A stretch of DNA of 10,976 bases, taken from UHGV virus genome UHGV-0119342. One strand, written 5' to 3'. The position numbers were made by a program, and so were the translations under genes. Positions 13 through 10,976 of this stretch are shown in pieces; the first letter of the stretch is position 1, and each line of letters opens with the position of its first letter. Origin of the DNA: a virus. The notes below the pieces were generated by a model. It ran no database searches. It worked only from the letters and a program-made list of their open reading frames with translations, and was not told where the DNA came from.

Positions 13-61
13 TTAATCGCGGTTTACATCAGCGCGGCGTTAATCGGGTGATTTTCATCAG
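13..61. repeat. Imperfect tandem direct repeat upstream of the recombinase gene (ttaatcgcggtttacatcag at 13-32; ttaatcgggtgattttcatcag at 40-61)
   Basis: Two copies read directly, both starting with ttaatcg and ending with catcag, 27 bp apart; aatcgcg recurs at 93-99. Function not established. Confidence 0.4.
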
Positions 62-124
62 ACACGTTTAAATACACCATCTAAAGCGATACAATCGCGC
101 TATTAGTTTTTATGGTGGTAAAGA

Positions 125-1528
125 ATGAAACGTGTAATCAGCTACATCAGATTCAGTTCTGAGCGACAAGCCAAAGGCGACTCACTACGCAGACAGTCTA
201 AGATGGTTAATGACTGGCTTAAGGCTCATCCTGAGTACTACCTTGACCAAGATTTATCCTTCCGTGATTTGGGGGTGAGTGGGTTCACTGGTAAGCACTT
301 GAAAGGTGGCTTAGGTGACTTTTTAACCGCTATCGAGAAAGGGCTTGTTAAAGCTGGTGATACGCTCTTGATAGAATCTCTTGACCGTCTGTCACGTCAA
401 GATGTAGACCAAGCAAGTGAGCTACTCAGAAACATTCTTCGCTCTGGTGTAGATGTGGTCACCTTGTCCGATGGTGAACATTACACACGAGAATCTCTTA
501 AAGACCCGTTAGCTCTGATTAAAAGCATTTTGATAATGCAGCGGTCGCATGAGGAAAGTTTGAGGAAGTCTGAGCGTATACAAGCTGCATGGGATGCAAA
601 GAAAGAAGCTGCTAAAGCCGGTATCAAGATTTCTAGGCGTTGTCCTGCATGGCTTAAGCTTAATGATGACCGTAAAAGCTTCTCTGTGATACCTGAGAAG
701 GTAGAAACTGTGAGGAGATGCTTTCAATTACGGTTAGAGGGTAAGTCTATCTGGGAGATTGTCCGGATTCTTAATGATGAAGGTCACCAGACACTTAACC
801 AGTACAAAGCAGGTAAGTTTGGTCAAACCTCAGTGCAAGACCTTCTGAAAAATCGCTCTGTAATTGGTTACTTCACACCTAAAGGCTGTGAGGAGATAGT
901 TGGTTATTTCCCCCCTATCATCCCTGAGACTGATTTCTACAAAGTCCAGCAACTATCATATTCTCGTTATGGAAGAAAGCCTGCTTCAGATAAACCATTG
1001 AGTGTGAATCTTTTCAAAGGTGTTATCCGTTGTTCTGAATGTGGTCATGCTCTGATTATCACAGGCTTTAGCGATACAAGAAGCGGTATATATCGCTGTC
1101 CTTCTCGAAATGAAAACCGTTGCAATGCCAAAGGGCTGTCACGTAAGCAAACCGATGGTACATTACTTGCCCTGCTATCCCGTATAGACCGATTTGATAG
1201 CGATATGACGAATACCATAGACACACTGAAGCTACACCGTGAACACATCTCAAGCAATATTGAAAAGCTGGTACAGCTATCACTTGAAATTGAAGACTTG
1301 TCCGCTATTACCAGCAAACTAAAACAGTTAAAAGGTGAGCTATCACAGGTTGATGCGGATATCGAGAAGGAGACACAACGCCTTAAATCTATTGATGTGG
1401 GGTGTTTGTCTGATTGTGACTTGACTACAAAGGCGGGAAGGATTGAAGCACAACTGATAATCAAAAGTGCTGTTAAAGAGGTCGTTTTGAATACTGCTAA
1501 ACGTCGATGTAACTTTTCACAACGGTAA
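125..1528 (+). CDS. Large serine recombinase (integrase/resolvase family)
   Basis: 467-aa ORF. N-terminal resolvase-type catalytic region (YIRFSSERQ with candidate catalytic Ser; LIESLDRLSRQ), Cys-rich zinc-ribbon-like segment (CSECGH...YRCPSRNENRC), C-terminal coiled-coil-like stretch. GGTGG about 8 nt upstream of ATG. Confidence 0.85.
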   Translation: MKRVISYIRFSSERQAKGDSLRRQSKMVNDWLKAHPEYYLDQDLSFRDLGVSGFTGKHLKGGLGDFLTAIEKGLVKAGDTLLIESLDRLSRQDVDQASELLRNILRSGVDVVTLSDGEHYTRESLKDPLALIKSILIMQRSHEESLRKSERIQAAWDAKKEAAKAGIKISRRCPAWLKLNDDRKSFSVIPEKVETVRRCFQLRLEGKSIWEIVRILNDEGHQTLNQYKAGKFGQTSVQDLLKNRSVIGYFTPKGCEEIVGYFPPIIPETDFYKVQQLSYSRYGRKPASDKPLSVNLFKGVIRCSECGHALIITGFSDTRSGIYRCPSRNENRCNAKGLSRKQTDGTLLALLSRIDRFDSDMTNTIDTLKLHREHISSNIEKLVQLSLEIEDLSAITSKLKQLKGELSQVDADIEKETQRLKSIDVGCLSDCDLTTKAGRIEAQLIIKSAVKEVVLNTAKRRCNFSQR

Positions 1529-1554
1529 GGTAATTGACCTACCAATAACAGAAG

Positions 1555-1613
1555 ACCCCTCGGAGGATGTTACAGAGGCTATACAGTCGCTTTCTGAAGT
1601 CACTGAGAGGGGT
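1555..1613. terminator. Candidate structured terminator region between the convergent recombinase and 254-aa genes
   Basis: Perfect 7-bp inverted repeat acccctc (1555-1561) / gaggggt (1607-1613) with a 45-nt spacer that contains the motifs gttacagagg and agaggctatacag; T-rich flank on the minus-strand side. Long spacer makes terminator function uncertain. Confidence 0.3.
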
Positions 1614-1657
1614 TTAATAGATGTTGATGAGGTTATCATATAGTTGAGATTCTATCG

Positions 1658-2422
1658 TCAGTAGCGCTTGTTAGGATTCACAGAAAACTTCCGTAAAGCA
1701 TTACCCGACTTAAGCACCTTTGAAGCTTGCTCATTAGCTGAGGCTGTGAAGGTGCTCTCACCATTTTTAACGCTAACGCTCTTAGAGCACGTTACACGGG
1801 CTTTTAGCGCTTCATCTGATAACTCACTTGCCGAATAGCTAAAAAGCTCTTTACAGGTCAGCATAGGGCTTCCAAGGCTCGTTGTAGTGTTGCCAGTGTT
1901 CTTTTTACTGGTAGAACCGCCATCATTCGTGGTAGCGACCTTTCCAGTAGCTGCTGAAACATCAGTTTGCCCTACGATTGAACGAAATTCTACACCTTGG
2001 AAGGTCATCTGAATACGAAGACCATTAGCAATGGTATGCTCTTTACTCGCTTTAAACTGAGTAATGATACTATCAGTGATAGATATTCCATCTTTACAAA
2101 CAATAGTGATGATTTGCTTCTGGTCTCGCCATTGTTCAACCGTAGAAATAAAGGTCTCTACAAGTTGCCCCTGTCTGGTTAATAGAACTGAACCCGTCGA
2201 ATCAACCACTACAACACCGCTAATAGAGATGGTCTTAGGTGCTCTCTGAACATTATCAGTGATAGTTTGCCCCGATTGCATAGCCTGAGTTGTCACCATC
2301 ATCGGTGAGTCATAGTCCATCTGTTCAGTAGCTGTTAAGGCAAGAAAAGATTCTACATTATCTCTAAGGTGAAAATAGATACCATCTTTACCTGAGTATC
2401 TAATTTGCTTTGTGTCAAACAT
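1658..2422 (-). CDS. Hypothetical protein, possibly tail-associated (immediately downstream of the tape measure gene)
   Basis: 254-aa ORF, AGGA 9 nt upstream of ATG, Ser/Thr/Gly-rich C-terminal half. Functional guess from position only. Confidence 0.6.
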
Positions 2423-2441
2423 TGTTGTTATTCCTATTCTG

Positions 2442-2487
2442 TTAAGCGTGAGCTACGTGAAATCTAATTTTTGATGTTGGTATCTGC
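2442..2487 (-). promoter_or_regulatory. Conserved promoter-like element, copy A, about 20 nt upstream of the 254-aa gene start
   Basis: Minus-strand reading gcagataccaacatcaaaaattagatttcacgtagctcacgcttaa is about 70 percent identical to a 46-bp element upstream of the tape measure gene; contains a -10-like TAGATT after an A-tract, no canonical -35. Confidence 0.5.
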
Positions 2488-2553
2488 TCAGAAGAAATCA
2501 CGTAGCATTCGACTATTCATAGTTGAATCGTCATACTAGATAAAGATTAATAG

Positions 2554-2571
2554 ATTGCCATGTGTGGCAAT
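2554..2571 (-). terminator. Candidate hairpin 25 nt downstream of the tape measure stop
   Basis: Perfect 7-bp inverted repeat attgcca / tggcaat with 4-nt loop tgtg; AT-rich but not pure U tail on the minus strand. Weak terminator or attenuator. Confidence 0.3.
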
Positions 2572-2595
2572 AAATATTAGTAGTTCTAACATTGT

Positions 2596-4662
2596 TTATT
2601 CCTCTGGGTAAGCGGAGCTAATCAAGGTATCTTCCTGCATACGATTAATATGCGATGTGGTTCTTTCATCAATAACCTTTCCATCAAGTACCGTCTGAGT
2701 TGTGATATTGATTGTCTGAGGCTGAATATTTACTGACGGCTTGATAACCTTTAAATCTTGTGTGAATGTTTCCACTCGACCTTTCAGATTATTTAATGCT
2801 TCAGGTGAAAACTGTGGAACATCTTTTGATTTGCCATGAACCATAGCCCATAAAACAGCAGCTAAAGAGTTCATGTCACCAGTCAATGCTTGGTCTGTGG
2901 GTTCCACCTTTGACCTTACAACTTTGTCAATTGGATTATCTGACTTACTCATCTGACGTTCATAGAACGGTTTAACAATGGAGTTAATCACATCAGTTGC
3001 CATACCGACAATCATTACTTTGGTAATTGCATCAGCTACAGATAATTTTCCTTTACCACCTTCAACACTACCGGAACGTGAATTAATTCTTCCCGCTGCT
3101 GTATTTGCTACATTTCCAAGCATGGAAATAGCCCTAATTAAGTTCCAGATACCACCTACAGCACCAATACCAGACCTTACAGCGACAATACCAGCAAGTC
3201 CCTTTAATGCACTTAACAGGCCATTTGCGATACCATCAGCTACAGCTTTTTGAGTGTCATTTAATTCTCTGTAAGCAAGGGTCACTCTGTCAAAGAATCC
3301 CTGCACTCGGTAGCTAATCGTGGTTAAATCATCAATACCGTTTGACATGCTTTTCATCAGGTCGCCAAAATGTTCACCAAGATTTTTAGATTGACCACCT
3401 AGTGAATTAAGTAAATTAGTCAGTGACCTTGTAAAGTCTGTTAAACCTTCCTGTGAACCGTCGAACATTAAGGCCAGATTATTATTCCATGAATTAGAAA
3501 GGCGGCCTAACTGCGTCTGAGTAGAGTTAATAATCTTTTCCCATCCACCAGCTTTATCAATCATCCTTCCCATTTCAGCGGATACTTTAGGAAGAACATC
3601 TTTAGAAAGAACTTTACCGTTCTTCATAGCTGCATCTAATTGCTCGGTAGTCATCCCAAGGCTTCTGGCAAATAACTGGAAAGCACCTGCCATTCTGTCA
3701 CCTAATTGACCACGTAGCTCTTCAGCCTGAATCTTCCCTTTAGAAGCCATCTGCTCGAAAGCTTTCAGAATCCCGTTAATTTCATCAGTGCTTAAACCCA
3801 TTAGTCGGGATGTACCAATCACATTAGAAAATAAGGATTCTTTCTGGTCTGCATTCATATCACCAGCACCAGCGGAAAACTTAGCAAAGCTACTTAATGT
3901 TTCAATCTGGTCTACACCTGTATTATTAGCAAGATTCTTAACGAAGTCTGTAGCTCGTTTAGCGCCTTCATCGCCTAATACAAATTGTGCCGCTCGTTGT
4001 GATGCTTCTTTTTTCAGACCAATCTCCATAATCTTCCTATAAGCTTCTAAGGCTGTCTGAAAACTATAAATGGCTGTACCTGCTTTGATTGCACTTGTAG
4101 CTAATACATCTAAACCATTTGAAGCATTTTCACTGTGATTGTTTTTGCTGGTGGTCTTATTAAACTTAGAAAGTGTTTCACGTAGATTTTGATTTAACTT
4201 TGCTAACTCACGATTAAAAGCTTCGTTCCCAAGTGTCTTGGATTTACCGCTTAAGCTGTAATACTGGCTTCTAAAATACTTCTCAAGTAGAGGATTAAAG
4301 TCACGAAGCTTGCTCATATTCACGCTATGCGCTGCTGTGATTGCTCTGTTGCCGCTAATTCGTGGTTGCCTTGCTGCTTTAACAGTTTCTTCAACCTGAG
4401 TTTTGAACTTAAAGACCTTCGTAGATTTGGCTCTTTCCTCCAGCTTATTAAAAGTCTGGTTAATCTTCTTTTCCATATTCCCCAAAGAGGCTGTTAAATC
4501 CTTATCCATGCTCTTTGGGTTAACTTTAAATGCTCTATTCAAATTGCGTTCAATTCTTTGTGCTGACTGCAAAGCTGCCTTTTCAACTCTTTGCAGTCCC
4601 TTAATAACGTTTTCATTGAAGCCTAGCTCAACGATAAAACTATCAACTGTGAATTTGCTCAT
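2596..4662 (-). CDS. Phage tail tape measure protein
   Basis: 688-aa ORF. Coiled-coil-like N-terminal region, central segment resembling the conserved tape-measure domain (GKIQAEELRGQLGDRMAGAFQLFARSLGMTTEQLDAAMKNGKV), Gly-rich hydrophobic segments near the C-terminus. AGAGGTG 10 nt upstream of ATG. Confidence 0.8.
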   Translation of the reverse strand: MSKFTVDSFIVELGFNENVIKGLQRVEKAALQSAQRIERNLNRAFKVNPKSMDKDLTASLGNMEKKINQTFNKLEERAKSTKVFKFKTQVEETVKAARQPRISGNRAITAAHSVNMSKLRDFNPLLEKYFRSQYYSLSGKSKTLGNEAFNRELAKLNQNLRETLSKFNKTTSKNNHSENASNGLDVLATSAIKAGTAIYSFQTALEAYRKIMEIGLKKEASQRAAQFVLGDEGAKRATDFVKNLANNTGVDQIETLSSFAKFSAGAGDMNADQKESLFSNVIGTSRLMGLSTDEINGILKAFEQMASKGKIQAEELRGQLGDRMAGAFQLFARSLGMTTEQLDAAMKNGKVLSKDVLPKVSAEMGRMIDKAGGWEKIINSTQTQLGRLSNSWNNNLALMFDGSQEGLTDFTRSLTNLLNSLGGQSKNLGEHFGDLMKSMSNGIDDLTTISYRVQGFFDRVTLAYRELNDTQKAVADGIANGLLSALKGLAGIVAVRSGIGAVGGIWNLIRAISMLGNVANTAAGRINSRSGSVEGGKGKLSVADAITKVMIVGMATDVINSIVKPFYERQMSKSDNPIDKVVRSKVEPTDQALTGDMNSLAAVLWAMVHGKSKDVPQFSPEALNNLKGRVETFTQDLKVIKPSVNIQPQTINITTQTVLDGKVIDERTTSHINRMQEDTLISSAYPEE

Positions 4663-4679
4663 TCATATTTTTCACCTCT

Positions 4680-4725
4680 TTAAGCGTGTTGTACGTAAAT
4701 TCTATTTTTCAGTGTGGGTATTAGC
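4680..4725 (-). promoter_or_regulatory. Conserved promoter-like element, copy B, about 18 nt upstream of the tape measure start
   Basis: Minus-strand reading gctaatacccacactgaaaaatagaatttacgtacaacacgcttaa; -10-like TAGAAT after an A-tract; both copies end in CACGCTTAA just before the RBS. Confidence 0.5.
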
Positions 4726-4779
4726 TTTACAGATTTCATGAGGATAATTCTTATCCGAATCATCACGTAGCACACATAC

Positions 4780-4821
4780 AAAAAAAGGGAGAGCTACCGA
4801 TGTCACTCGATAATCTCTCCC
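4780..4821 (-). terminator. Rho-independent terminator (minus strand) between the 71-aa gene and the tape measure gene
   Basis: Perfect 7-bp GC-rich stem GGGAGAG / CTCTCCC (4787-4793 / 4815-4821), 21-nt loop, followed on the minus strand by a run of 7 U (4780-4786). Confidence 0.55.
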
Positions 4822-4871
4822 CGTACTATAGATTCGATAGAACCTATCTCATATACCCAACCAATTCTTTT

Positions 4872-5087
4872 TTAATGTCTGACAAGATAATGTAATTCCG
4901 TTTCACCTATGATTTGAGCATCAGAAGGAATACGGTCAATACACCACTTTGGAATCTTGCGTGTTTTTGGTTTGTGTGAGGTGATAACTTGACGTTTGTT
5001 TTTAATTCTTAAGGCTGGCTTAGTTTGTAACTTTAAGTTTTCACAAGCCGACTTAATAGTTTCATAACGCTGTTGCAAATCAATCAT
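4872..5087 (-). CDS. Hypothetical small basic protein
   Basis: 71-aa ORF, GAGGT 6 nt upstream of ATG, starts 23 nt after the stop of the upstream 234-aa gene; Lys/Arg-rich C-terminal half. Confidence 0.6.
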   Translation of the reverse strand: MIDLQQRYETIKSACENLKLQTKPALRIKNKRQVITSHKPKTRKIPKWCIDRIPSDAQIIGETELHYLVRH

Positions 5088-5110
5088 TCATCTACCTCAC
5101 ATATGCATAA

Positions 5111-5815
5111 TCAAACAGCCTTGCTAAATTCTCGTGGAACACTCAGAAAATCATTGAAGCTGATAATCTGTGCCAACTCTTGACGGTACTCCTTAGCCAG
5201 CGCTTGATGGTCACTAATCAGCTTAGCCAGTCTTGATTTCAGCAAATTAATCTCATTTTCTCTTGCTTTCATCAGTTTCTCTTTGGCAATTTCTTCAAGC
5301 TCAGCTTGTGATTTATCAGCAACAATTAGAGACAATCGATGTGGTGCTCTGACAGCTCTTTCCGTACGAATAACCCTTTGACCTTCTGGTAAATCTGCAA
5401 TCACTTTACCAATCTCTACAGGGTCATACCCCCAACCGTCACGGTCTAGTCGAGAGAAATAAGCATAAGAATTGGTTTGAAGCTCCATTAAAATAGCCAT
5501 TTCGTCAATTTCGTCTTCAAGCTTGGACTGAATTTTCTCGTAAACACTTCTCATTGCTTCTTGAGAGTCTTTAATAGCTTGGAAATATCGGCGTTGTAGC
5601 TTCAACTTCAAATCAAGTTCACAACTTTCGTTCATAGAAAAATCAATTTCAACTCTTGGAATCTCGAGTGGTTCTGGTGGAATATATGGACCTTTATTTA
5701 CTTCGTGTGATTCCCGCCAAGCTCTATCAAAAGATTCACGCAAAGTTAATTCGTGAATATCAAGTGCACTTGGTCGGCTTTCAATAATCATTTCATTTTC
5801 ATCACGGATAGCCAT
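5111..5815 (-). CDS. Hypothetical acidic protein with coiled-coil-like C-terminal half
   Basis: 234-aa ORF, AGAGGAAAGG 5 nt upstream of ATG; heptad-like helical C-terminal region. No recognisable catalytic motif. Confidence 0.65.
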   Translation of the reverse strand: MAIRDENEMIIESRPSALDIHELTLRESFDRAWRESHEVNKGPYIPPEPLEIPRVEIDFSMNESCELDLKLKLQRRYFQAIKDSQEAMRSVYEKIQSKLEDEIDEMAILMELQTNSYAYFSRLDRDGWGYDPVEIGKVIADLPEGQRVIRTERAVRAPHRLSLIVADKSQAELEEIAKEKLMKARENEINLLKSRLAKLISDHQALAKEYRQELAQIISFNDFLSVPREFSKAV

Positions 5816-6020
5816 TAATACCTTTCCTCTTCTAAGATAATTTATGTTTCAGTTTTTAAAAAGCACACCTGACATCCTCGAACTTAGAAGAGGCTTAAAA
5901 GGCGTTTGCCAAGTATGCTTTTTAAAAGCTGAAAAGGCCCTAGATAACTAAAACGCTATAAAGGGCTAAGGTGAAGAAATTAAAACATCTAAAGGATTCA
6001 ATAACGAATGAACAAGAGTA

Positions 6021-6069
6021 CTTTTCGAGATGACCTCTCAGGTTATATAAGAGGTCATGTAGCGAAAAG
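6021..6069. repeat. Nested palindrome in the leader upstream of the 234-aa gene
   Basis: Inner perfect 9-bp inverted repeat atgacctct / agaggtcat (6030-6038 / 6050-6058) with 11-nt spacer, flanked by outer arms cttttcg (6021-6027) / cgaaaag (6063-6069). No U-tract on either strand. Confidence 0.45.
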
Positions 6070-6155
6070 CATTGCACCTTTCCAAATCAGAATATCCATC
6101 CATCGGATTATTGAAAATATGATTTTAGGAAGAGTTGCTCTTCCCTATAATTAAA

Positions 6156-6184
6156 ATTATGTCATACTTAAGGTTATTTGTCAA
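6156..6184 (-). promoter_or_regulatory. Candidate sigma70-type promoter (minus strand) for the 234-aa / 71-aa genes
   Basis: Minus-strand -35 TTGACA (6179-6184), 17-bp spacer, -10 CATAAT (6156-6161); implies a leader of about 330 nt. Confidence 0.4.
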
Positions 6185-6462
6185 CAGCCTTTTAACAGAT
6201 TGGTAACATCAATTTCTATTTACTGTGTTGCCTACCCAGCAACCAACAAATAAGCCAAGCAACGTCCAAGCAATTATTAAGCCCATTAGTGAACCCTCAC
6301 AGAATCCGTAACCAAAATATTGTCGCCGTACAGGATTGTCACAGCACCTTTCAAAAATTGCTCTGGGGAAATACTGTATTTGTTCGTTTGCTCGATAACC
6401 AATCTTTTCATGTCGCTGTCTGCAATTGGTAGCATCATTCGAGGCTCGTTAAACTCCACCGA

Positions 6463-6609
6463 CTAAATAAAGTCAGAGATGTTTTCTGCATTATCAGCCA
6501 TCAGCTTTAGTAATTTATCAAAATTAATTGCGATACCTGCATCACTGAAAGCCTGAATCATCAGAGCGGTGTCGTTATCAACGAAAATCTGTAATTCGTA
6601 ATTGCTCAT
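6463..6609 (-). CDS. Small acidic hypothetical protein (48 aa, not in the supplied ORF track)
   Basis: Hand translation MSNYELQIFVDNDTALMIQAFSDAGIAINFDKLLKLMADNAENISDFI; AAGGAG 9 nt upstream of ATG. Confidence 0.4.
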   Translation of the reverse strand: MSNYELQIFVDNDTALMIQAFSDAGIAINFDKLLKLMADNAENISDFI

Positions 6610-6764
6610 TTTTAAAATCTCCTTTTTACCAGACCTCCTCAATCGCTCTGTAACGAGCTAAACAGTCTTTTTCAGGGGTAGCCTGTACAGTGGTATTACC
6701 CACCCTAAAATAAGATAGTTTTTTGCGTTAGAATGCGATTGAGAGCGTCTGAGAAGCTGTTTTT

Positions 6765-7052
6765 CTAATTTCTCTTAAAGTCTCGGACTTGCATAAGATT
6801 TTTTGGTCTGGTATCGGCTCTGTTACCATTTCGATGGATAATTTGCTTATTGGATTGATAGCCATGATAAAGGAACCAGACAACATATTTCACGTAGAAA
6901 GTATATCGGCCTATATTAAATGTTTTGTTGCCGTAGTCGTCGGTATTTATCGTGACTGACTCTCCATCAGACCAGCACAGGGAATCACTGGATTCATCAT
7001 AGATAAGGTGTTCTGTAAAATATCGTCTAACATCTTCATGCCAAGGTTTCAT
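6765..7052 (-). CDS. Truncated HNH-like protein, paralogue of the N-terminal part of the 9540-10064 endonuclease
   Basis: 95-aa ORF, GAGGAGG 4 nt upstream of ATG. Shares KPWHEDVRRY with KAWPEEVIRY and VVWFLYHG...IIHRNGNRADTRPKNL with VIFYLYHG...IDHIDGDPLNNAISNL, but ends before the final HNH Asn and has no AP2 domain. Confidence 0.65.
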   Translation of the reverse strand: MKPWHEDVRRYFTEHLIYDESSDSLCWSDGESVTINTDDYGNKTFNIGRYTFYVKYVVWFLYHGYQSNKQIIHRNGNRADTRPKNLMQVRDFKRN

Positions 7053-7264
7053 AAAACCTCCTCACCCCAATAACCTAATTCAATCTTGTGACGCTCAAAC
7101 CATTCTGGCTTGACTGCTGCTTTCAGTACTTCATTTGGGCCAATGGCTTTAATGAAAATATCTTTTGAGTTATGGATGTCACCGAATCCGTTTCCTTTAA
7201 TCAGGAGGTCGGAGATGTAGCGAATCATTTTATCTGTGTGGTATTCAAAGGTAACGCATAGCAT
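7049..7264 (-). CDS. Hypothetical protein
   Basis: 71-aa ORF, GGAGG 4 nt upstream of ATG; start overlaps the stop of the upstream gene by 1 nt, and its stop overlaps the start of the 95-aa gene by 4 nt. Confidence 0.55.
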   Translation of the reverse strand: MLCVTFEYHTDKMIRYISDLLIKGNGFGDIHNSKDIFIKAIGPNEVLKAAVKPEWFERHKIELGYWGEEVL

Positions 7265-7542
7265 TAAACCTCCAGAGACAGCTTGTGAATTTTAAGACTC
7301 AATAGACGGGCAATATCAATCTTAAAGCCGTTAAGCGCCTTCAAAGTAGCTAAAGCGTCCTGACTAATTCGGATGTGTTTACGACCTTTAGAGACTGGAT
7401 ATTTCAGTAAATCCGACTCAGTAACCTCTTTAGCAATTGCAAGCTGCATAACAGTTTGATGAGGGAGGTTAGTTGTCTGTTTAATTCGGGTAAGCTCGTG
7501 AAAGGCTTCTTCTGAAATACGGGTCAAAGTGTGTTTCTTCAT
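7264..7542 (-). CDS. Ribbon-helix-helix (CopG/Arc-like) DNA-binding protein, putative regulator
   Basis: 92-aa ORF, AGAGGA 8 nt upstream of ATG. N-terminus MKKHTLTRISEEAFHELTRIKQTTNLPHQTVMQLAIAKEV fits the RHH strand-helix-helix pattern; a second similar segment (HIRISQDALATLKAL...) may be a tandem repeat. Confidence 0.55.
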   Translation of the reverse strand: MKKHTLTRISEEAFHELTRIKQTTNLPHQTVMQLAIAKEVTESDLLKYPVSKGRKHIRISQDALATLKALNGFKIDIARLLSLKIHKLSLEV

Positions 7543-8100
7543 TTAAAATTCCTCTGTAACTAAATACGGGTCAAACTCAAAGTCTGGTTGCTCGTTTTCC
7601 ATTGGCTCAATATTTCCAACGGCAATATGATGCTCAACAACACCAATTAACTTTGCGCACATTACAGCAAGCAATGCACAATATTTATCGCTTGGTAATT
7701 CGTAGCTAAGTCTGGTTGCTTGTCGCTGAAGATGATTTGTCACGGTGGCTGAGTTAATTTCATCAAGGTTCTTTAGGAGATAAAATAGCTTCTTGTTGTA
7801 TTTCGGGTGACCTTCACCTCTACAGAATCCAATGAAAATATCATCAAGCTTACTTGGTAATTGTTCGTAGCTGTCAAAGTTAGCCAGATAATTTTTGATG
7901 CTGTTCTTTGTTGTTTTGCGTACTGACATATAACGACTCCTCGGTGTAATTGCCCGAATTACTTCGTCAATGCCTTTGCGCTCTGCTCTGGTGAACTTGG
8001 GTACTTCGTGACTGGTGGGGGAGTTTGTGTAAGCGTAGGAGTTGTGCTTGTTGCGTTCTCTTGATGCCTGAAGCATCGCTCTAAATTCTCTGTCGTTCAT
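7543..8100 (-). CDS. Hypothetical protein, first gene of the leftward operon
   Basis: 185-aa ORF, GAGGG 11 nt upstream of ATG; stop codon directly abuts the next start (TAAATG). Acidic/aromatic C-terminal tail (DFEFDPYLVTEEF). No recognisable domain. Confidence 0.6.
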   Translation of the reverse strand: MNDREFRAMLQASRERNKHNSYAYTNSPTSHEVPKFTRAERKGIDEVIRAITPRSRYMSVRKTTKNSIKNYLANFDSYEQLPSKLDDIFIGFCRGEGHPKYNKKLFYLLKNLDEINSATVTNHLQRQATRLSYELPSDKYCALLAVMCAKLIGVVEHHIAVGNIEPMENEQPDFEFDPYLVTEEF

Positions 8101-8151
8101 TCATGTTCTGACCCTCATAAGATGTTATTATTCTGTTAACTTATATATACA

Positions 8152-8180
8152 ATCTTAGCAGTTTCAAAGACTAATGTCAA
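8152..8180 (-). promoter_or_regulatory. Candidate sigma70-type promoter for the leftward operon
   Basis: Minus-strand -35 TTGACA (8175-8180), 17-bp spacer, -10 TAAGAT (8152-8157); back-to-back with the plus-strand promoter. Confidence 0.3.
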
Positions 8181-8187
8181 GCATTTT

Positions 8188-8217
8188 TTAACATTTCATT
8201 AACATCTGTGGTATAAT
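8188..8217 (+). promoter_or_regulatory. Candidate strong sigma70-type promoter with extended -10
   Basis: -35 TTAACA (8188-8193), 18-bp spacer, TGg + TATAAT (8209-8217); points toward the small ORF at 8348. Confidence 0.5.
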
Positions 8218-8347
8218 GGTTTTATGAGAGAGGGAAAATATAAAGGCGTGGCTATGAGGTTTATTCGATAGGGGTTGGTACAAGCCCAACTAACCGAATC
8301 AACTATGTATTTGGTCACATGGTATTGCATTGCACACAGGAAATTTA

Positions 8348-8524
8348 ATGGTAAATCTCCCTCCTGAGCTGGGGTCACCTGATGTATGGGCTGGTGGAGG
8401 TGTTGGGCTGATTGCAGGCCTGCTACTTCGCTATGTCCTCGTCAGAGTGCTTGTTGTCTTTAAACTGTTCGGTCGTACATGGACGCTTGACCTTAAGGAT
8501 AATGACCACACAGACCCCCGTTAA
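8348..8524 (+). CDS. Small single-pass membrane protein (58 aa from the ATG; the ORF track begins at a TTG at 8330)
   Basis: AGGA 6 nt upstream of the ATG at 8348; hydrophobic segment WAGGGVGLIAGLLLRYVLVRVLVV; locally GC-richer than its surroundings. Confidence 0.45.
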   Translation: MVNLPPELGSPDVWAGGGVGLIAGLLLRYVLVRVLVVFKLFGRTWTLDLKDNDHTDPR

Positions 8525-8538
8525 ACTCCCTCCAAAAC

Positions 8539-8570
8539 CCCCTGTACGAGATAGTATAGGGGTGTCTTTA
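8539..8570 (+). terminator. Candidate terminator after the small membrane-protein ORF
   Basis: Imperfect 8-bp stem cccctgta / tatagggg (one mismatch), 8-nt loop, followed by tgtcttta. Confidence 0.3.
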
Positions 8571-9453
8571 GCATTTTGTGCTATCTATTAAAAAATAGCT
8601 TGACAGAACAGGAAAGCTGTATCTATCAAGTATTCACCTCTCTGACAGTAATTTCTAAAAGTTCTTATTTTTCAATAAGTTGTAATTAGCCAATATATAA
8701 GGCTGTCCAGTACCTTCACAGAAAAACTTCAGAAGCCTTCTTAATCAATCCACTAAGCGAGAGAGAGCGATAACCCCAGAGAGGGAAGCTCCCTTCTTAA
8801 AAACCTTCTTGACAATCTTTACAGGCCTTGTTCAAGGTAATCGCAATAGTTTTTCTTCCCTCGGTTTCCCGTGTTCCTCGGTTTGCCTATTGAGGTTTGA
8901 AAGACCTCTGTAACTTCCCTCTTAGACAGGGAAGAATAATATTGGTGACACAAGCGAAGCGCCCCTCTAAAAAGATTTTTTAGCTATTTTGTTTAAAAGC
9001 ACATCAAACGATACATTTTATTGATTTAGGTCAAAGACAAAAGCATTGACAAAATGGTAAGATTGTTCACATGACCTTACTTAACAGATTCTTAAGAGCT
9101 TTGAAGCGGCCTATTTAACAAGGTCACTACCTCTGGTCTTATCGTTCCCTCTCTTCTTGGTAGTTCTGTTAAGTATCTTTTCAGGTATCTCTTACAGTCA
9201 CTGTTAAGATGATACTCTCCCTTCGGGTTATATCGTTACTTTCTCTCCCGTTAAACACTCCTTCCTAACTATCTACATAATCACTTCTAAGAATCTTACA
9301 AGGTAATATCCAGACCTCTTATAGCTGACCTGATACAGAAACATTACAGGCATACTCTCTAGGTTCTGTGTAGTTCCCTTGGTGGGAATAGATGCTCCTA
9401 CAATAAGAGCATCATTAATCTATATAGTCCTCTTCCGAGAACTTAATAGTTTT

Positions 9454-9481
9454 TTGATGTACATCAATCATTATCTAAAAT
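9454..9481 (+). promoter_or_regulatory. Candidate promoter for the HNH endonuclease gene
   Basis: -35 TTGATG (9454-9459), 16-bp spacer, -10 TAAAAT (9476-9481). Confidence 0.3.
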
Positions 9482-9539
9482 ATGATATGAAGTTTCTTGG
9501 TAGTATTACATCAACAAGTTAATTGAAATAAGGAATATT

Positions 9540-10064
9540 ATGGTGACTAGGTATACCAAGGCATGGCCTGAAGAAGTTATAAGATACATCAATGAAAATA
9601 TTACAGCAGATTTTGAATCTGGAACATTATTTAGAAATGGTGTAAAAATCGAGGGTTCACTTGTAAATCCTAAACCAAGACAATATCTGGCTTTTGGTTG
9701 TCGGATTAATGGTAAGTTCAGAATACTTAAGGTGCATCAGGTTATTTTCTATCTATATCATGGTAAACAAGCTAAACTATGGATTGACCATATAGATGGT
9801 GACCCGCTAAATAATGCTATTAGCAATCTTCGCGAGGTTACCAAAGAGCAGAATCAGGCAAACATGATACCCAGAAAGAAAACAAAATCAGGTTACAAGG
9901 GAGTACACCCAAGAGTGGATAACAAGGGGTTCTGGGCTACAATACGCTGTAATGGAAAATCTCATTATCTGGGTCAGTTTAATACAGCAGAAGAAGCTGC
10001 AAAAGCCTATGATGCTGCATCACTGGAATTGCATGGTAAATATGGACACAGGAATTTTAGCTGA
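9540..10064 (+). CDS. Free-standing homing endonuclease, NUMOD4-like N-terminus + HNH nuclease + AP2 DNA-binding domain
   Basis: 174-aa ORF, AAGGA 5 nt upstream of ATG. HNH motif VHQVIFYLYHG...IDHIDGDPLNNAISNLREVTKEQNQAN; AP2-like C-terminus YKGVHPRVDNKGFWATIRCNGKSHYLGQFNTAEEAAKAYDAAS. Confidence 0.85.
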   Translation: MVTRYTKAWPEEVIRYINENITADFESGTLFRNGVKIEGSLVNPKPRQYLAFGCRINGKFRILKVHQVIFYLYHGKQAKLWIDHIDGDPLNNAISNLREVTKEQNQANMIPRKKTKSGYKGVHPRVDNKGFWATIRCNGKSHYLGQFNTAEEAAKAYDAASLELHGKYGHRNFS

Positions 10065-10074
10065 TAGTTAATAA

Positions 10075-10104
10075 AGACCTGACATAAACTTGTCGATAGG
10101 TCTG
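10075..10104 (+). terminator. Candidate stem-loop downstream of the HNH endonuclease gene
   Basis: agacctgaca ... tgtcgataggtct: 10 paired positions with a 3-nt bulge, AT-rich tail (gattaaagtttat); weak as an intrinsic terminator. Confidence 0.3.
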
Positions 10105-10896
10105 ATTAAAGTTTATACAGTGATTTTTCATCTTCTAATTTTTTTATAAAAATCGTAGTACCCCCTCTACATTCCCCTTCACCGATAATCTTAAAAAATA
10201 TCTACACTCAATTGATGGCTGTTAAGTACCCCAGATTCACGATATAGCACCCCCTTTGCAAAAGCAGTTAAAATATCTATAACCAATTATTGACTTTCTT
10301 CATAGCATCTGTTTACCTCCACCTCAAAAAAACCTTCATCACATTTCACAGCATCTATCAAGAAGATTTAACCTATCAATAGCTGTAACATTTTATAGTC
10401 CTGTGAAGTCCTCCCCAGTTTTCTCTGTAACAGACACAAACTTCTGTGACCTTATGTGTCAATGACTTATAAGACATGCTCTCAAGGTGCTGTATAGCCT
10501 CTTATCTTCCAATACATAAAACTCTTATAAATCAGTACTGATATGTATACAGTTCGTTTTTAACATAATAGCTGTTTTACGCACTAAGAAGCATCTACGT
10601 AGATTCTGTATAGAGATTAAGATGTCTCTAAGTGATTTTTTAAGAGGAGATACGAAGGAACTATAACCATCACTTCATAACTTTCACGTAGGTAGCTATT
10701 AAGTAGGTTGATAGTCACTTTGAGGGAATATTGATAGTGACCAACTGCATAGACACCGTTATATAGCCCTGTATATAGCACTATATGTAGTGTCTGGAGA
10801 GGAACGACTAACACGATACAGTTTACCCTGAAAAGAGACTTCACAGATTCTCTATATATTTCAATAAGTTATGATAAAAAGAGACTATATCAATAC

Positions 10897-10955
10897 TGCA
10901 TAGAATCTGTGTAGGATTGCATAGATACTTGGAAAAATGCCTTTAAATTGCATAG
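10897..10955. repeat. Helically phased TGyrTAG repeats (iteron-like or operator-array-like)
   Basis: TGCATAG at 10897, TGTGTAG at 10908, TGCATAG at 10918 and TGCATAG at 10949; spacings 11, 10 and 31 bp. The last two copies sit in a longer direct repeat ATTGCATAG(A/G)TAC. Confidence 0.45.
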
Positions 10956-10976
10956 GTACTAACCTGTTTATGTCCT

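Follow-up and report, generated by a model that had tools for sequence, protein, structure and literature searches.

A spaced inverted repeat before a tail gene of an Escherichia coli island, shared with phages P1 and T7, as a possible protein-binding operator

Why does an eight-letter word, TCACGTAG, recur through the viral genome UHGV-0119342? The stretch analysed (the window, 10,976 nt) is nearly all of an 11.9-kb island in the Escherichia coli gene yecE, between yecD and yecN. An initial annotation, made from the letters, had pointed to a recurrent tcacgtag motif, partly arranged as an inverted pair around a promoter-like element. The word is the core of a longer half-site of ~14 nt, AGATTTCACGTAGC. 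Two inverted half-sites, 45 nt apart from start to start, form a dyad, and the whole module takes up ~65 nt. The dyad stands before a Dit-like baseplate gene in the island, and it is found again in P1, T7 and other phages. Its conserved form suggests a fixed-geometry protein-binding operator, to which a rough probability of 0.4 is given here.

Is the recurrence of the word more than chance? The k-mer enrichment check that had been proposed was run against shuffled controls. On both strands of the window there are six exact copies of TCACGTAG (0.14 expected from dinucleotide shuffles), and none of 200 dinucleotide-preserving shuffles reaches that count; under a stricter second-order Markov estimate the expectation is 0.84. 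The 10-mer TTTCACGTAG is present four times against 0.09 expected, and it is the sole 10-mer with at least four copies. The motif is non-random, as had been claimed. One-mismatch variants of TCACGTAG, seven besides the six exact copies, are at chance level (5.7 expected), and a near match tcacgtaa in the integrase gene, which the annotation had listed, is therefore probably noise. Some positions needed correction: those at 2498 and 10684 are exact, whereas the ones given as 2452, 4764 and 1138 are at 2453, 4763 and 1139. All exact copies that had been listed exist, but those at 4178 and 6890 were overlooked. Both the palindromic ctacgtag (10595-10602) and, before the tape-measure gene near 4690, the degenerate arm tgtacgtaa are there. 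The exact copies of TCACGTAG are as follows.

2453-2460, minus strand
2498-2505, plus strand
4178-4185, plus strand
4763-4770, plus strand
6890-6897, plus strand
10684-10691, plus strand

The sole intact dyad in the window is the one before the Dit-like gene, at 2452-2506. Its parts and the gene are these.

1658-2422, minus strand: Dit-like (baseplate) gene, 254 amino acids (Pfam Dit_like, 3.5e-17), preceded by the intact dyad
2442-2450, minus strand: CACGCTTAA box, directly 3' of the proximal arm and ~20 nt before the ATG at 2422
2452-2465, minus strand: gene-proximal arm, on the coding strand the exact 14-mer AGATTTCACGTAGC
2466-2492, minus strand: spacer of 27 nt, with the central box ATACCAAC and an A-rich, -10-like stretch
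2493-2506, plus strand: gene-distal arm, on the plus strand AGAAATCACGTAGC, in relatives AGATTTCACGTAGC

Read along the coding (minus) strand, the module passes from the distal arm GCTACGTGAAATCT through 27 nt to the proximal arm AGATTTCACGTAGC and on to TCACGCTTAA; ~20 nt follow, including the ribosome-binding site, and then the ATG. The 9-bp perfect inverted repeat gctacgtga (2452-2460) / tcacgtagc (2498-2506) noticed earlier before the 254-amino-acid gene is a real and strongly conserved element. What had escaped notice is that the arms are ~14 nt long, that their spacing is fixed at 45 nt and that a very large family of such dyads exists beyond the island. The promoter-like element A of the same annotation, a 47-nt repeat, is merely the gene-proximal half of the dyad module.

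How well is the module kept among related islands? It is present in every island examined, always with the 8-mer starts 45 nt apart, and in every relative examined ~30 nt separate it from the Dit-like gene downstream. It has been kept despite protein identities to those of the window of 40-49% for the tape-measure protein and 59-70% for the Dit protein. Arms and 45-nt spacing are also unchanged in an island with a 34%-identical integrase at another insertion site (L137; compared loci are cited by such numbers), and in relatives from Salmonella, Citrobacter and metagenomes, while the sequence just outside the module has been swapped for unrelated sequence in different variants. The invariant cores are GCTACGTGA and T(C/T)ACGTAGC, and the core of the proximal arm, TCACGTAGC, is the same in all island variants. 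The CACGCTTAA box and the spacer vary. The box, less conserved than the arms, reads TAACGCTTAA in Citrobacter (L147) and TAATGCTTAA in L149; the spacer has a constant length and three to four sequence types, and its central box is ATACCAAC in the window and ATACCCAC in relatives. The distal arm of the window carries an AA-to-TT change relative to many relatives. Across six related loci the pattern T[CT]ACGTAG is found two to six times per island, as against once in ~63 kb of flanking chromosome.

Is the dyad confined to these islands? A scan of viral contigs with the 14-mer gave mostly single chance matches; in four unrelated contigs, however, a partner arm stands at exactly 45 nt across a different spacer, where by our own estimate ~0.04 such cases would be expected. 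Scans of metagenomes with the dyad pattern yielded more than 120 stretches that fall into ~40 spacer clusters, counted as independent lineages. The family consensus is (G)CGCTACGTGAAATCTG - ~25 nt - CAGATTT(C/T)ACGTAGCG(C). A central G-run box, for example GGGGATAA or GGGTAAT, recurs in unrelated dyads, and the ATACCCAC of the islands is its complement. Of 21 independent examples, 20 have a spacing of 45 nt; a variant from an Stx phage has 46 nt. Half-sites are also found in tandem, with three sites in L125.

Two of the carriers are well-known phages. In P1 (NC_005856, L175) the dyad GCGCTACGTAAAATCTG-N25-CAGATTTCGCGTAGCGC lies between loxP and cra-cre, at nt 116-177, and ends 30 nt before the cra start; it is not annotated in the P1 record. 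The annotated -10 of P3cre (TAAAAT, nt 124-129) is inside its distal arm (nt 116-132). P1-like phage-plasmids other than P1 carry the dyad as well. In T7 (NC_001604, L177) and its relatives it follows gene 18 (small terminase) closely, at nt 36,884-36,938, and overlaps the start of gene 18.5, with the Shine-Dalgarno sequence and ATG of that gene in the spacer. The T7 dyad could be a chance match, yet four more bases outside the search pattern also fit the consensus. In 933W-like prophages the dyad is directly upstream of terS, the small terminase gene. Stx phage P13374 has CTGTGTGAAA / TTTAACACAG at the homologous position, a joint change of the two arms.

What genes keep company with the dyad? 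The commonest neighbour is a Cre-like tyrosine recombinase gene (11 of 39 clusters), often starting 29-37 nt after the dyad, and in at least nine independent contexts the dyad ends 24-37 nt before a start codon. Two loci, L178 (~1544-2720) and L292 (~6735-7851), have two dyads ~1.1 kb apart beside the recombinase gene, which is the layout of an excisable or invertible segment. These two, along with L213 and L228, are chromosomal metagenome contigs, probably of marine Gammaproteobacteria, with two dyads at this distance by a Cre-like recombinase gene. No Rfam match was found at the dyad in the window, P1, P1-like, L087, L125 and L126 loci (E up to 1-5), and a literature search with the sequence brought up unrelated primers and guide sequences but no paper with the dyad in a relevant context. 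Judged by these searches, the family has not been described before, even though P1 and T7 are among its carriers.

The remaining copies in the window are damaged, decayed or unpaired. They are listed here with the neighbouring features.

2596-4662, minus strand: tape-measure gene, 688 amino acids (Pfam TMP_3, PHROG 4036)
4178-4185, plus strand: unpaired TTTCACGTAG copy, antisense within the tape-measure coding sequence
4680-4688: CACGCTTAA box of the tape-measure dyad, after the degenerate proximal arm
4690-4703, minus strand: degenerate proximal arm of the tape-measure dyad, coding strand AGAATTTACGTACA, with two changes
4731-4735: inner part of the distal arm, AGATT
4736-4762: insertion of 27 bases into the distal arm, made up of a small palindrome, GGATAAGAATTATCC, and a repeated TGA
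4763-4771, plus strand: outer part of the distal arm, TCACGTAGC
4780-4822, minus strand: intrinsic-terminator-like hairpin, GGGGAGAG...CTCTCCC plus a T run, ending 8 nt upstream of the tape-measure dyad
6890-6897, plus strand: unpaired TTTCACGTAG copy, antisense within a 95-amino-acid HNH endonuclease gene
10595-10602: decayed proximal arm of a third dyad, now the palindrome CTACGTAG
10679-10692, plus strand: distal arm of the third dyad, AACTTTCACGTAGG, 89 nt from its partner

The tape-measure dyad has its arms 72 nt apart instead of 45 owing to the 27 extra bases, an insertion deduced by comparing the window with the intact modules of L003, L011, L135, L136 and L137. Among other islands, L003, L011 and L135-L137 have a perfect copy of this module, and L001, L010, L145 and L149 lack it cleanly. 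The terminator-like hairpin upstream of the tape-measure gene is kept in all variants, even in those without the dyad. A small hairpin similar to the palindrome of the 27-nt insertion, GGATAGCCTTCTATCC, is seen at the same place in variants that lack the tape-measure dyad. The third module, in the right arm of the island, is intact in L005 and decayed in the window. The homologue of its proximal arm is GATTTCACGTAGAACACGCTTAG in L005, with one further change in L011; its distal arm is kept in L010, L012, L013 and L135 and reads CACATAG/CACATGG in L004, L005 and L011. For the copies at 4178 and 6890 a partner arm was sought 45 nt away and none was found. The 4178 copy is limited to ~90%-identical and chimeric tape-measure alleles and is absent from the divergent alleles of 40-49% identity.

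How might the dyad work? A sequence-specific DNA-binding protein complex, either a dimer of dimers or a dimer on bent DNA, would read it. Placed between the upstream terminator-like hairpin and the ribosome-binding site, the island dyad would then control transcription initiation, in all islands for the Dit-like baseplate gene and in some for the tape-measure gene as well. An activator-dependent or repressible promoter without a recognisable -35 would be the likeliest arrangement. A protein-DNA site is favoured because such sites typically have conserved arms, a set distance between them and a spacer that is free to vary, because the sequence of the arms, and not merely their pairing, is conserved across unrelated genomes, and because changes at the outer arm positions are not compensated. 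Spacers show no more folding than shuffled versions of themselves, which also supports a DNA site, and the unpaired and tandem half-sites (4178, 6890, L125) argue for one over a hairpin. An operator in particular is suggested by the P3cre -10 inside the P1 distal arm, and by the usual distance of 24-37 nt from the end of the dyad to a start codon. In the island tape-measure module and in L152 a terminator-like hairpin stands directly upstream, so that transcription would have to start anew there. The co-changed arms of P13374 are counted in its favour as well. The binding protein is probably not encoded by the island, since no gene is common to the different dyad contexts.

Several observations weigh against an operator. 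A consensus scan found no sigma-70 promoter reaching 9/12 in 2440-2510 or 4680-4775; the candidates picked out by eye are weak, TGAACA-18-TAGATT for the Dit-like gene and TAGAAT without a -35 for the tape-measure gene. The operator arrangement around a -10-like box proposed in the initial annotation is plausible, given the conserved arms and spacing and the P3cre -10 within an arm. A binding protein was not found, nor is any gene common to the island, P1-like, terS and T7 contexts. In T7 the host polymerase is shut off late and the gene 18.5 start codon is inside the dyad, so that a promoter-operator role cannot hold everywhere. The dyads of L162, L166 and L087 are far from start codons or within genes. 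The tape-measure module is missing or broken in many islands and so is dispensable there.

If a protein does bind the dyad, it would mark an unnoticed control point in two of the best-studied phages, before cra-cre in P1 and at genes 18/18.5 in T7, and the same one in Stx-type prophages and in a common island of E. coli, Salmonella and Citrobacter with Felix O1-like tail genes. It would give a handle on how islands turn on tail genes, on how cre-type recombinase genes are regulated and on whether control sites of phages are copied by satellites. As a sequence that is easy to search for, the dyad also marks the island family and phage module junctions. A wider proposal is more tentative: arm, G-run box and arm, in their 45-bp geometry, might make up an unrecognised three-part element shared by P1, T7, Stx-type prophages, Cre-like loci and satellite-like islands across Gammaproteobacteria. 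One conserved host factor, or a widely shared phage factor, might read it and so tie recombinase, packaging and tail gene expression or processing to one signal.

Could the arms act in RNA instead? In an mRNA leader or intercistronic RNA they would pair into a stem of 9-17 bp with a ~27-nt loop, which might act on downstream processing, stability or translation. Folding of the whole intergenic region gives z = -3.8 to -5.1, with the dyad paired as predicted, and the arms co-vary in the Stx phage. The L149 dyad, 14 nt after the tape-measure stop codon, would be co-transcribed with that gene, and in T7 and the lambdoid late operons the dyad region is certainly within long mRNAs. An operator for the host polymerase makes little sense in T7, and a shared protein gene would be unnecessary if host RNases or the ribosome were the partners. 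The variable stem pair, which on the sense strand is G.T nine times as against A.C twice, leans towards pairing in RNA and counts against an operator. A hairpin nevertheless seems unlikely. A fixed loop length around a free, unstructured loop sequence is unusual for an RNA element, the stem sequence is conserved in unrelated phages over and above its pairing, and changes in the outer stem are uncompensated; the AA-to-TT change of the window distal arm, of the commonest type, breaks two pairs. Unpaired copies exist. The mapped P1 promoter starts inside the dyad, giving a transcript without the 5' arm, and in the island tape-measure module the terminator ends 8 nt before that arm. No Rfam family matches, and the T7 RNase III site R18.5 appears to be a separate hairpin, ~28 nt upstream.

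Does the dyad rather mark junctions between gene modules, as a DNA site for recombination or packaging? It would then be a site for a Cre-like recombinase, or a cosB-type site for terminase or an accessory factor, and the island copies would let phage machinery act on the island or let cassettes be exchanged. The frequent Cre-like neighbour (11/39 clusters) and the paired dyads of L178 and L292 point that way, as does the place of the dyad beside terS in four or more unrelated types of phage (L126/L105 with the Stx phages, L160, L087/L168 and T7 gene 18). Module edges are the breakpoints at which tape-measure and Dit alleles have been shuffled among islands, and the island resembles a phage satellite. 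Such a role is improbable all the same. P1 Cre acts on loxP, a 34-bp site ~110-115 bp from the dyad, and the dyad spacer of ~25 bp is unlike the 6-8 bp spacers of tyrosine-recombinase core sites. The island has neither a tyrosine recombinase nor terS; dyads with identical arms stand beside the genes of terS proteins from different families; the packaging signals of T7 and the pac site of P1 are located elsewhere; no convincing IHF site was seen on inspection of the spacers; and the constant short distance to start codons would not be required. That the word has no function of its own, its excess coming from a duplicated promoter-proximal segment and hitch-hiking copies, is very improbable. A remainder of the probability goes to none of these readings. 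It is true that three of the six copies and the degenerate fourth arm make up two copies of one duplicated module, and that the copies at 4178 and 6890 are in coding sequence and conserved only as far as those alleles. Against this, the arms have been conserved while their flanks were replaced, ~40 unrelated lineages, P1 and T7 among them, have the same arms and spacing, and the first scan found four partner arms where ~0.04 were to be expected by chance on our estimate.

Which known systems does the putative operator recall? It behaves, by analogy, like the operator/activator dyad of a phage late promoter or, in geometry, like lambda cosB. One close case is the P1 cre regulatory region (P3cre / pR1), which has the same dyad; there the genes downstream form a recombinase operon and not tail genes, and a G-to-A change in one arm yields a good -10, a change that the island coding strand does not have. 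The P2/P4 Ogr/Delta site is a TGT-N12-ACA dyad centred near -55, as compared with two 14-nt arms 45 bp apart here. RinA is an activator acting upstream of terS in staphylococcal phages (PMC3152322). Both the P2 Ogr/P4 Delta and the RinA systems have, like the dyad, a site before morphogenetic genes and no usable -35. Late promoters of satellites and their helpers likewise combine a cis element in phages with its presence in an island that has phage-like structural genes; they differ in that the island motif is not enriched in Felix O1 (four intragenic copies in 86 kb). P1 late promoters form a class in which an inverted repeat takes the place of a -35 as the defining feature (PMC10695390); the repeat, of 9 bp at -22, is bound by Lpa. 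The likeness ends there: the -22 region of P1 LPmat, AAGTGACTT, is a single compact palindrome unrelated to TCACGTAG. Lambda cosB (R3-I1-R2, with gpNu1 and IHF) has two inverted elements ~50 bp apart upstream of the small terminase gene, and the dyads of L126/L105 and Stx-type prophages have a cosB-like position upstream of terS. The dyads differ from cosB in having no similarity to R sequences and no clear IHF site; no terS accompanies the island, P1 and cre-like dyads, and the terS families beside the others differ. R18.5 of T7 is, like the T7 dyad, an intergenic hairpin-forming sequence before gene 18.5. Its cleavage position, presumably 36,856, falls in a separate small hairpin upstream, whereas the dyad overlaps the gene 18.5 start. 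An RNase III hairpin has a mostly paired stem of about two turns; the dyad stems are of 9-17 bp with a large unstructured loop.

Other identities were tried and set aside. A sigma-70 promoter with a pair of repressor operators agrees with the conservation and spacing of the arms, but a -35 and -10 at 16-18 bp spacing are lacking. Nothing like AAGTGACTT is in the module, as a P1 Lpa late promoter would have, and TGT-N12-ACA is absent from the module sequences read. As an intrinsic terminator the dyad lacks a T run after the proximal arm, and a terminator scan does not report it. A lox or rox site has arms of 13-14 bp with a 4-8 bp spacer, compared with arms ~45 bp apart here (L167 has a separate lox site ~95 bp from its dyad); the RYYYAAC...GTTRRRY boxes of attC are absent on inspection. 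R18.5 of T7 appears to be a hairpin distinct from the dyad, and there is no covariance-model match to an Rfam RNA family. A spacer of 27 nt is too short for an invertible promoter switch, plus-strand promoters reading from TTCACG have no consistent -10, and extension of a helix through the spacer was dismissed on the folding of spacers relative to shuffles. Is it a promoter motif of a helper phage? Felix O1 has no copy of the module, its four TCACGTAG copies in 86 kb being intragenic; the Dit intergenic region matched no phage in a collection of 50,697 records; and an L126-type prophage as a helper resident in E. coli had no match in 5,426 complete E. coli genomes. Proteins of the island were considered as binders. 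The integrase was rejected on account of L137, where a 34%-identical integrase at another site goes with the same dyad, and the 92-amino-acid ribbon-helix-helix-like and 71-amino-acid basic proteins because their alleles are reassorted without regard to the module and because neither is present in the P1, T7 and terS contexts. None of the island proteins recurs in other dyad contexts.

What kind of element carries the module? Its extent and its recombinase are as follows.

54-10976 of the window and beyond, about 19054-30927 of L009: the island
125-1528: large serine recombinase

The other strand of the island has an operon of small orphan genes and an HNH endonuclease, then the tape-measure and Dit-like genes; the right arm is long and non-coding, with an HNH-AP2 gene. 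The Dit-like gene has ~74% DNA identity to the gene after the tape-measure gene in Felix O1-like phages, and the tape-measure protein ~29% amino acid identity to those of Felix O1 type; in Felix O1 the two homologues are adjacent and overlap. The region of the module is present in 449 of 5,426 complete E. coli genomes. Related islands are found at a second site, tonB-yciI, with the 34%-identical integrase, and also in Salmonella, Citrobacter and E. albertii. Every island gene has two or three alleles, shuffled between islands. The whole looks like a satellite of, or a decoy against, Felix O1-type myoviruses. A literature search for the island (yecE; SpLE2; satellite with Felixounavirus) found no description; the copy in O157:H7 is presumably 'SpLE2'. 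Variable cargo includes a methyltransferase, an invertase, an FRG-domain protein and a 277-amino-acid coiled-coil protein. The gene yecE is a known attachment site of Stx phages (PMC8112680), and in E. coli FAM21845 (L135, 1-9614) yecE holds, in tandem with the island, a lambdoid prophage that has a tyrosine integrase.

Some further features of the window may be recorded. The right arm (8100-9540 and 10064-10976) resembles a 1.6-kb gene-free region of Felix O1 (L014, 12305-13928). Both are rich in words of the CTGTTAAG/CTTAACAG type, with seven CTGTTAAG in the window, and CACCCCCTTTGCAAAA...TTAAAATATC is common to window 10245-10283 and Felix 13283-13319. There are also Felix-like promoter words, such as CTTCTTGACAATC (8797-8819). 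This likeness could be mimicry of an origin, a packaging site or a promoter. At the right end TGCATAG stands four times within ~210 nt (10746, 10897, 10918 and 10949; region 10746-10955), in an iteron-like manner. A second over-represented word, CTCTGTAAC, unrelated to TCACGTAG, has five copies (1569 on the minus strand; 6646, 7552, 8906 and 10423 on the plus strand) against 0.07 expected, none of 200 shuffles reaching five; it is found mostly at gene ends or in non-coding DNA. The 92-amino-acid open reading frame (7264-7542, minus strand) appears to have two ribbon-helix-helix repeats in one chain, with a weak match to DndE. Its putative DNA-reading strands, HT(L/V)TR and (I/V)RI, are kept even between 33%-identical alleles, and the family is confined to Escherichia, Citrobacter and Salmonella. 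Between the 234-amino-acid open reading frame and the HNH gene, a gene at 6291-6614 (minus strand) is split by an internal stop into frames of 57 and 59 amino acids; it is intact in relatives (107-109 amino acids). The leftward operon of small genes is headed by good back-to-back sigma-70-like promoters at 8152-8217, TTGACA-17-TAAGAT leftward and TTAACA-18-TATAAT rightward, both with TG and with no TCACGTAG copy nearby.

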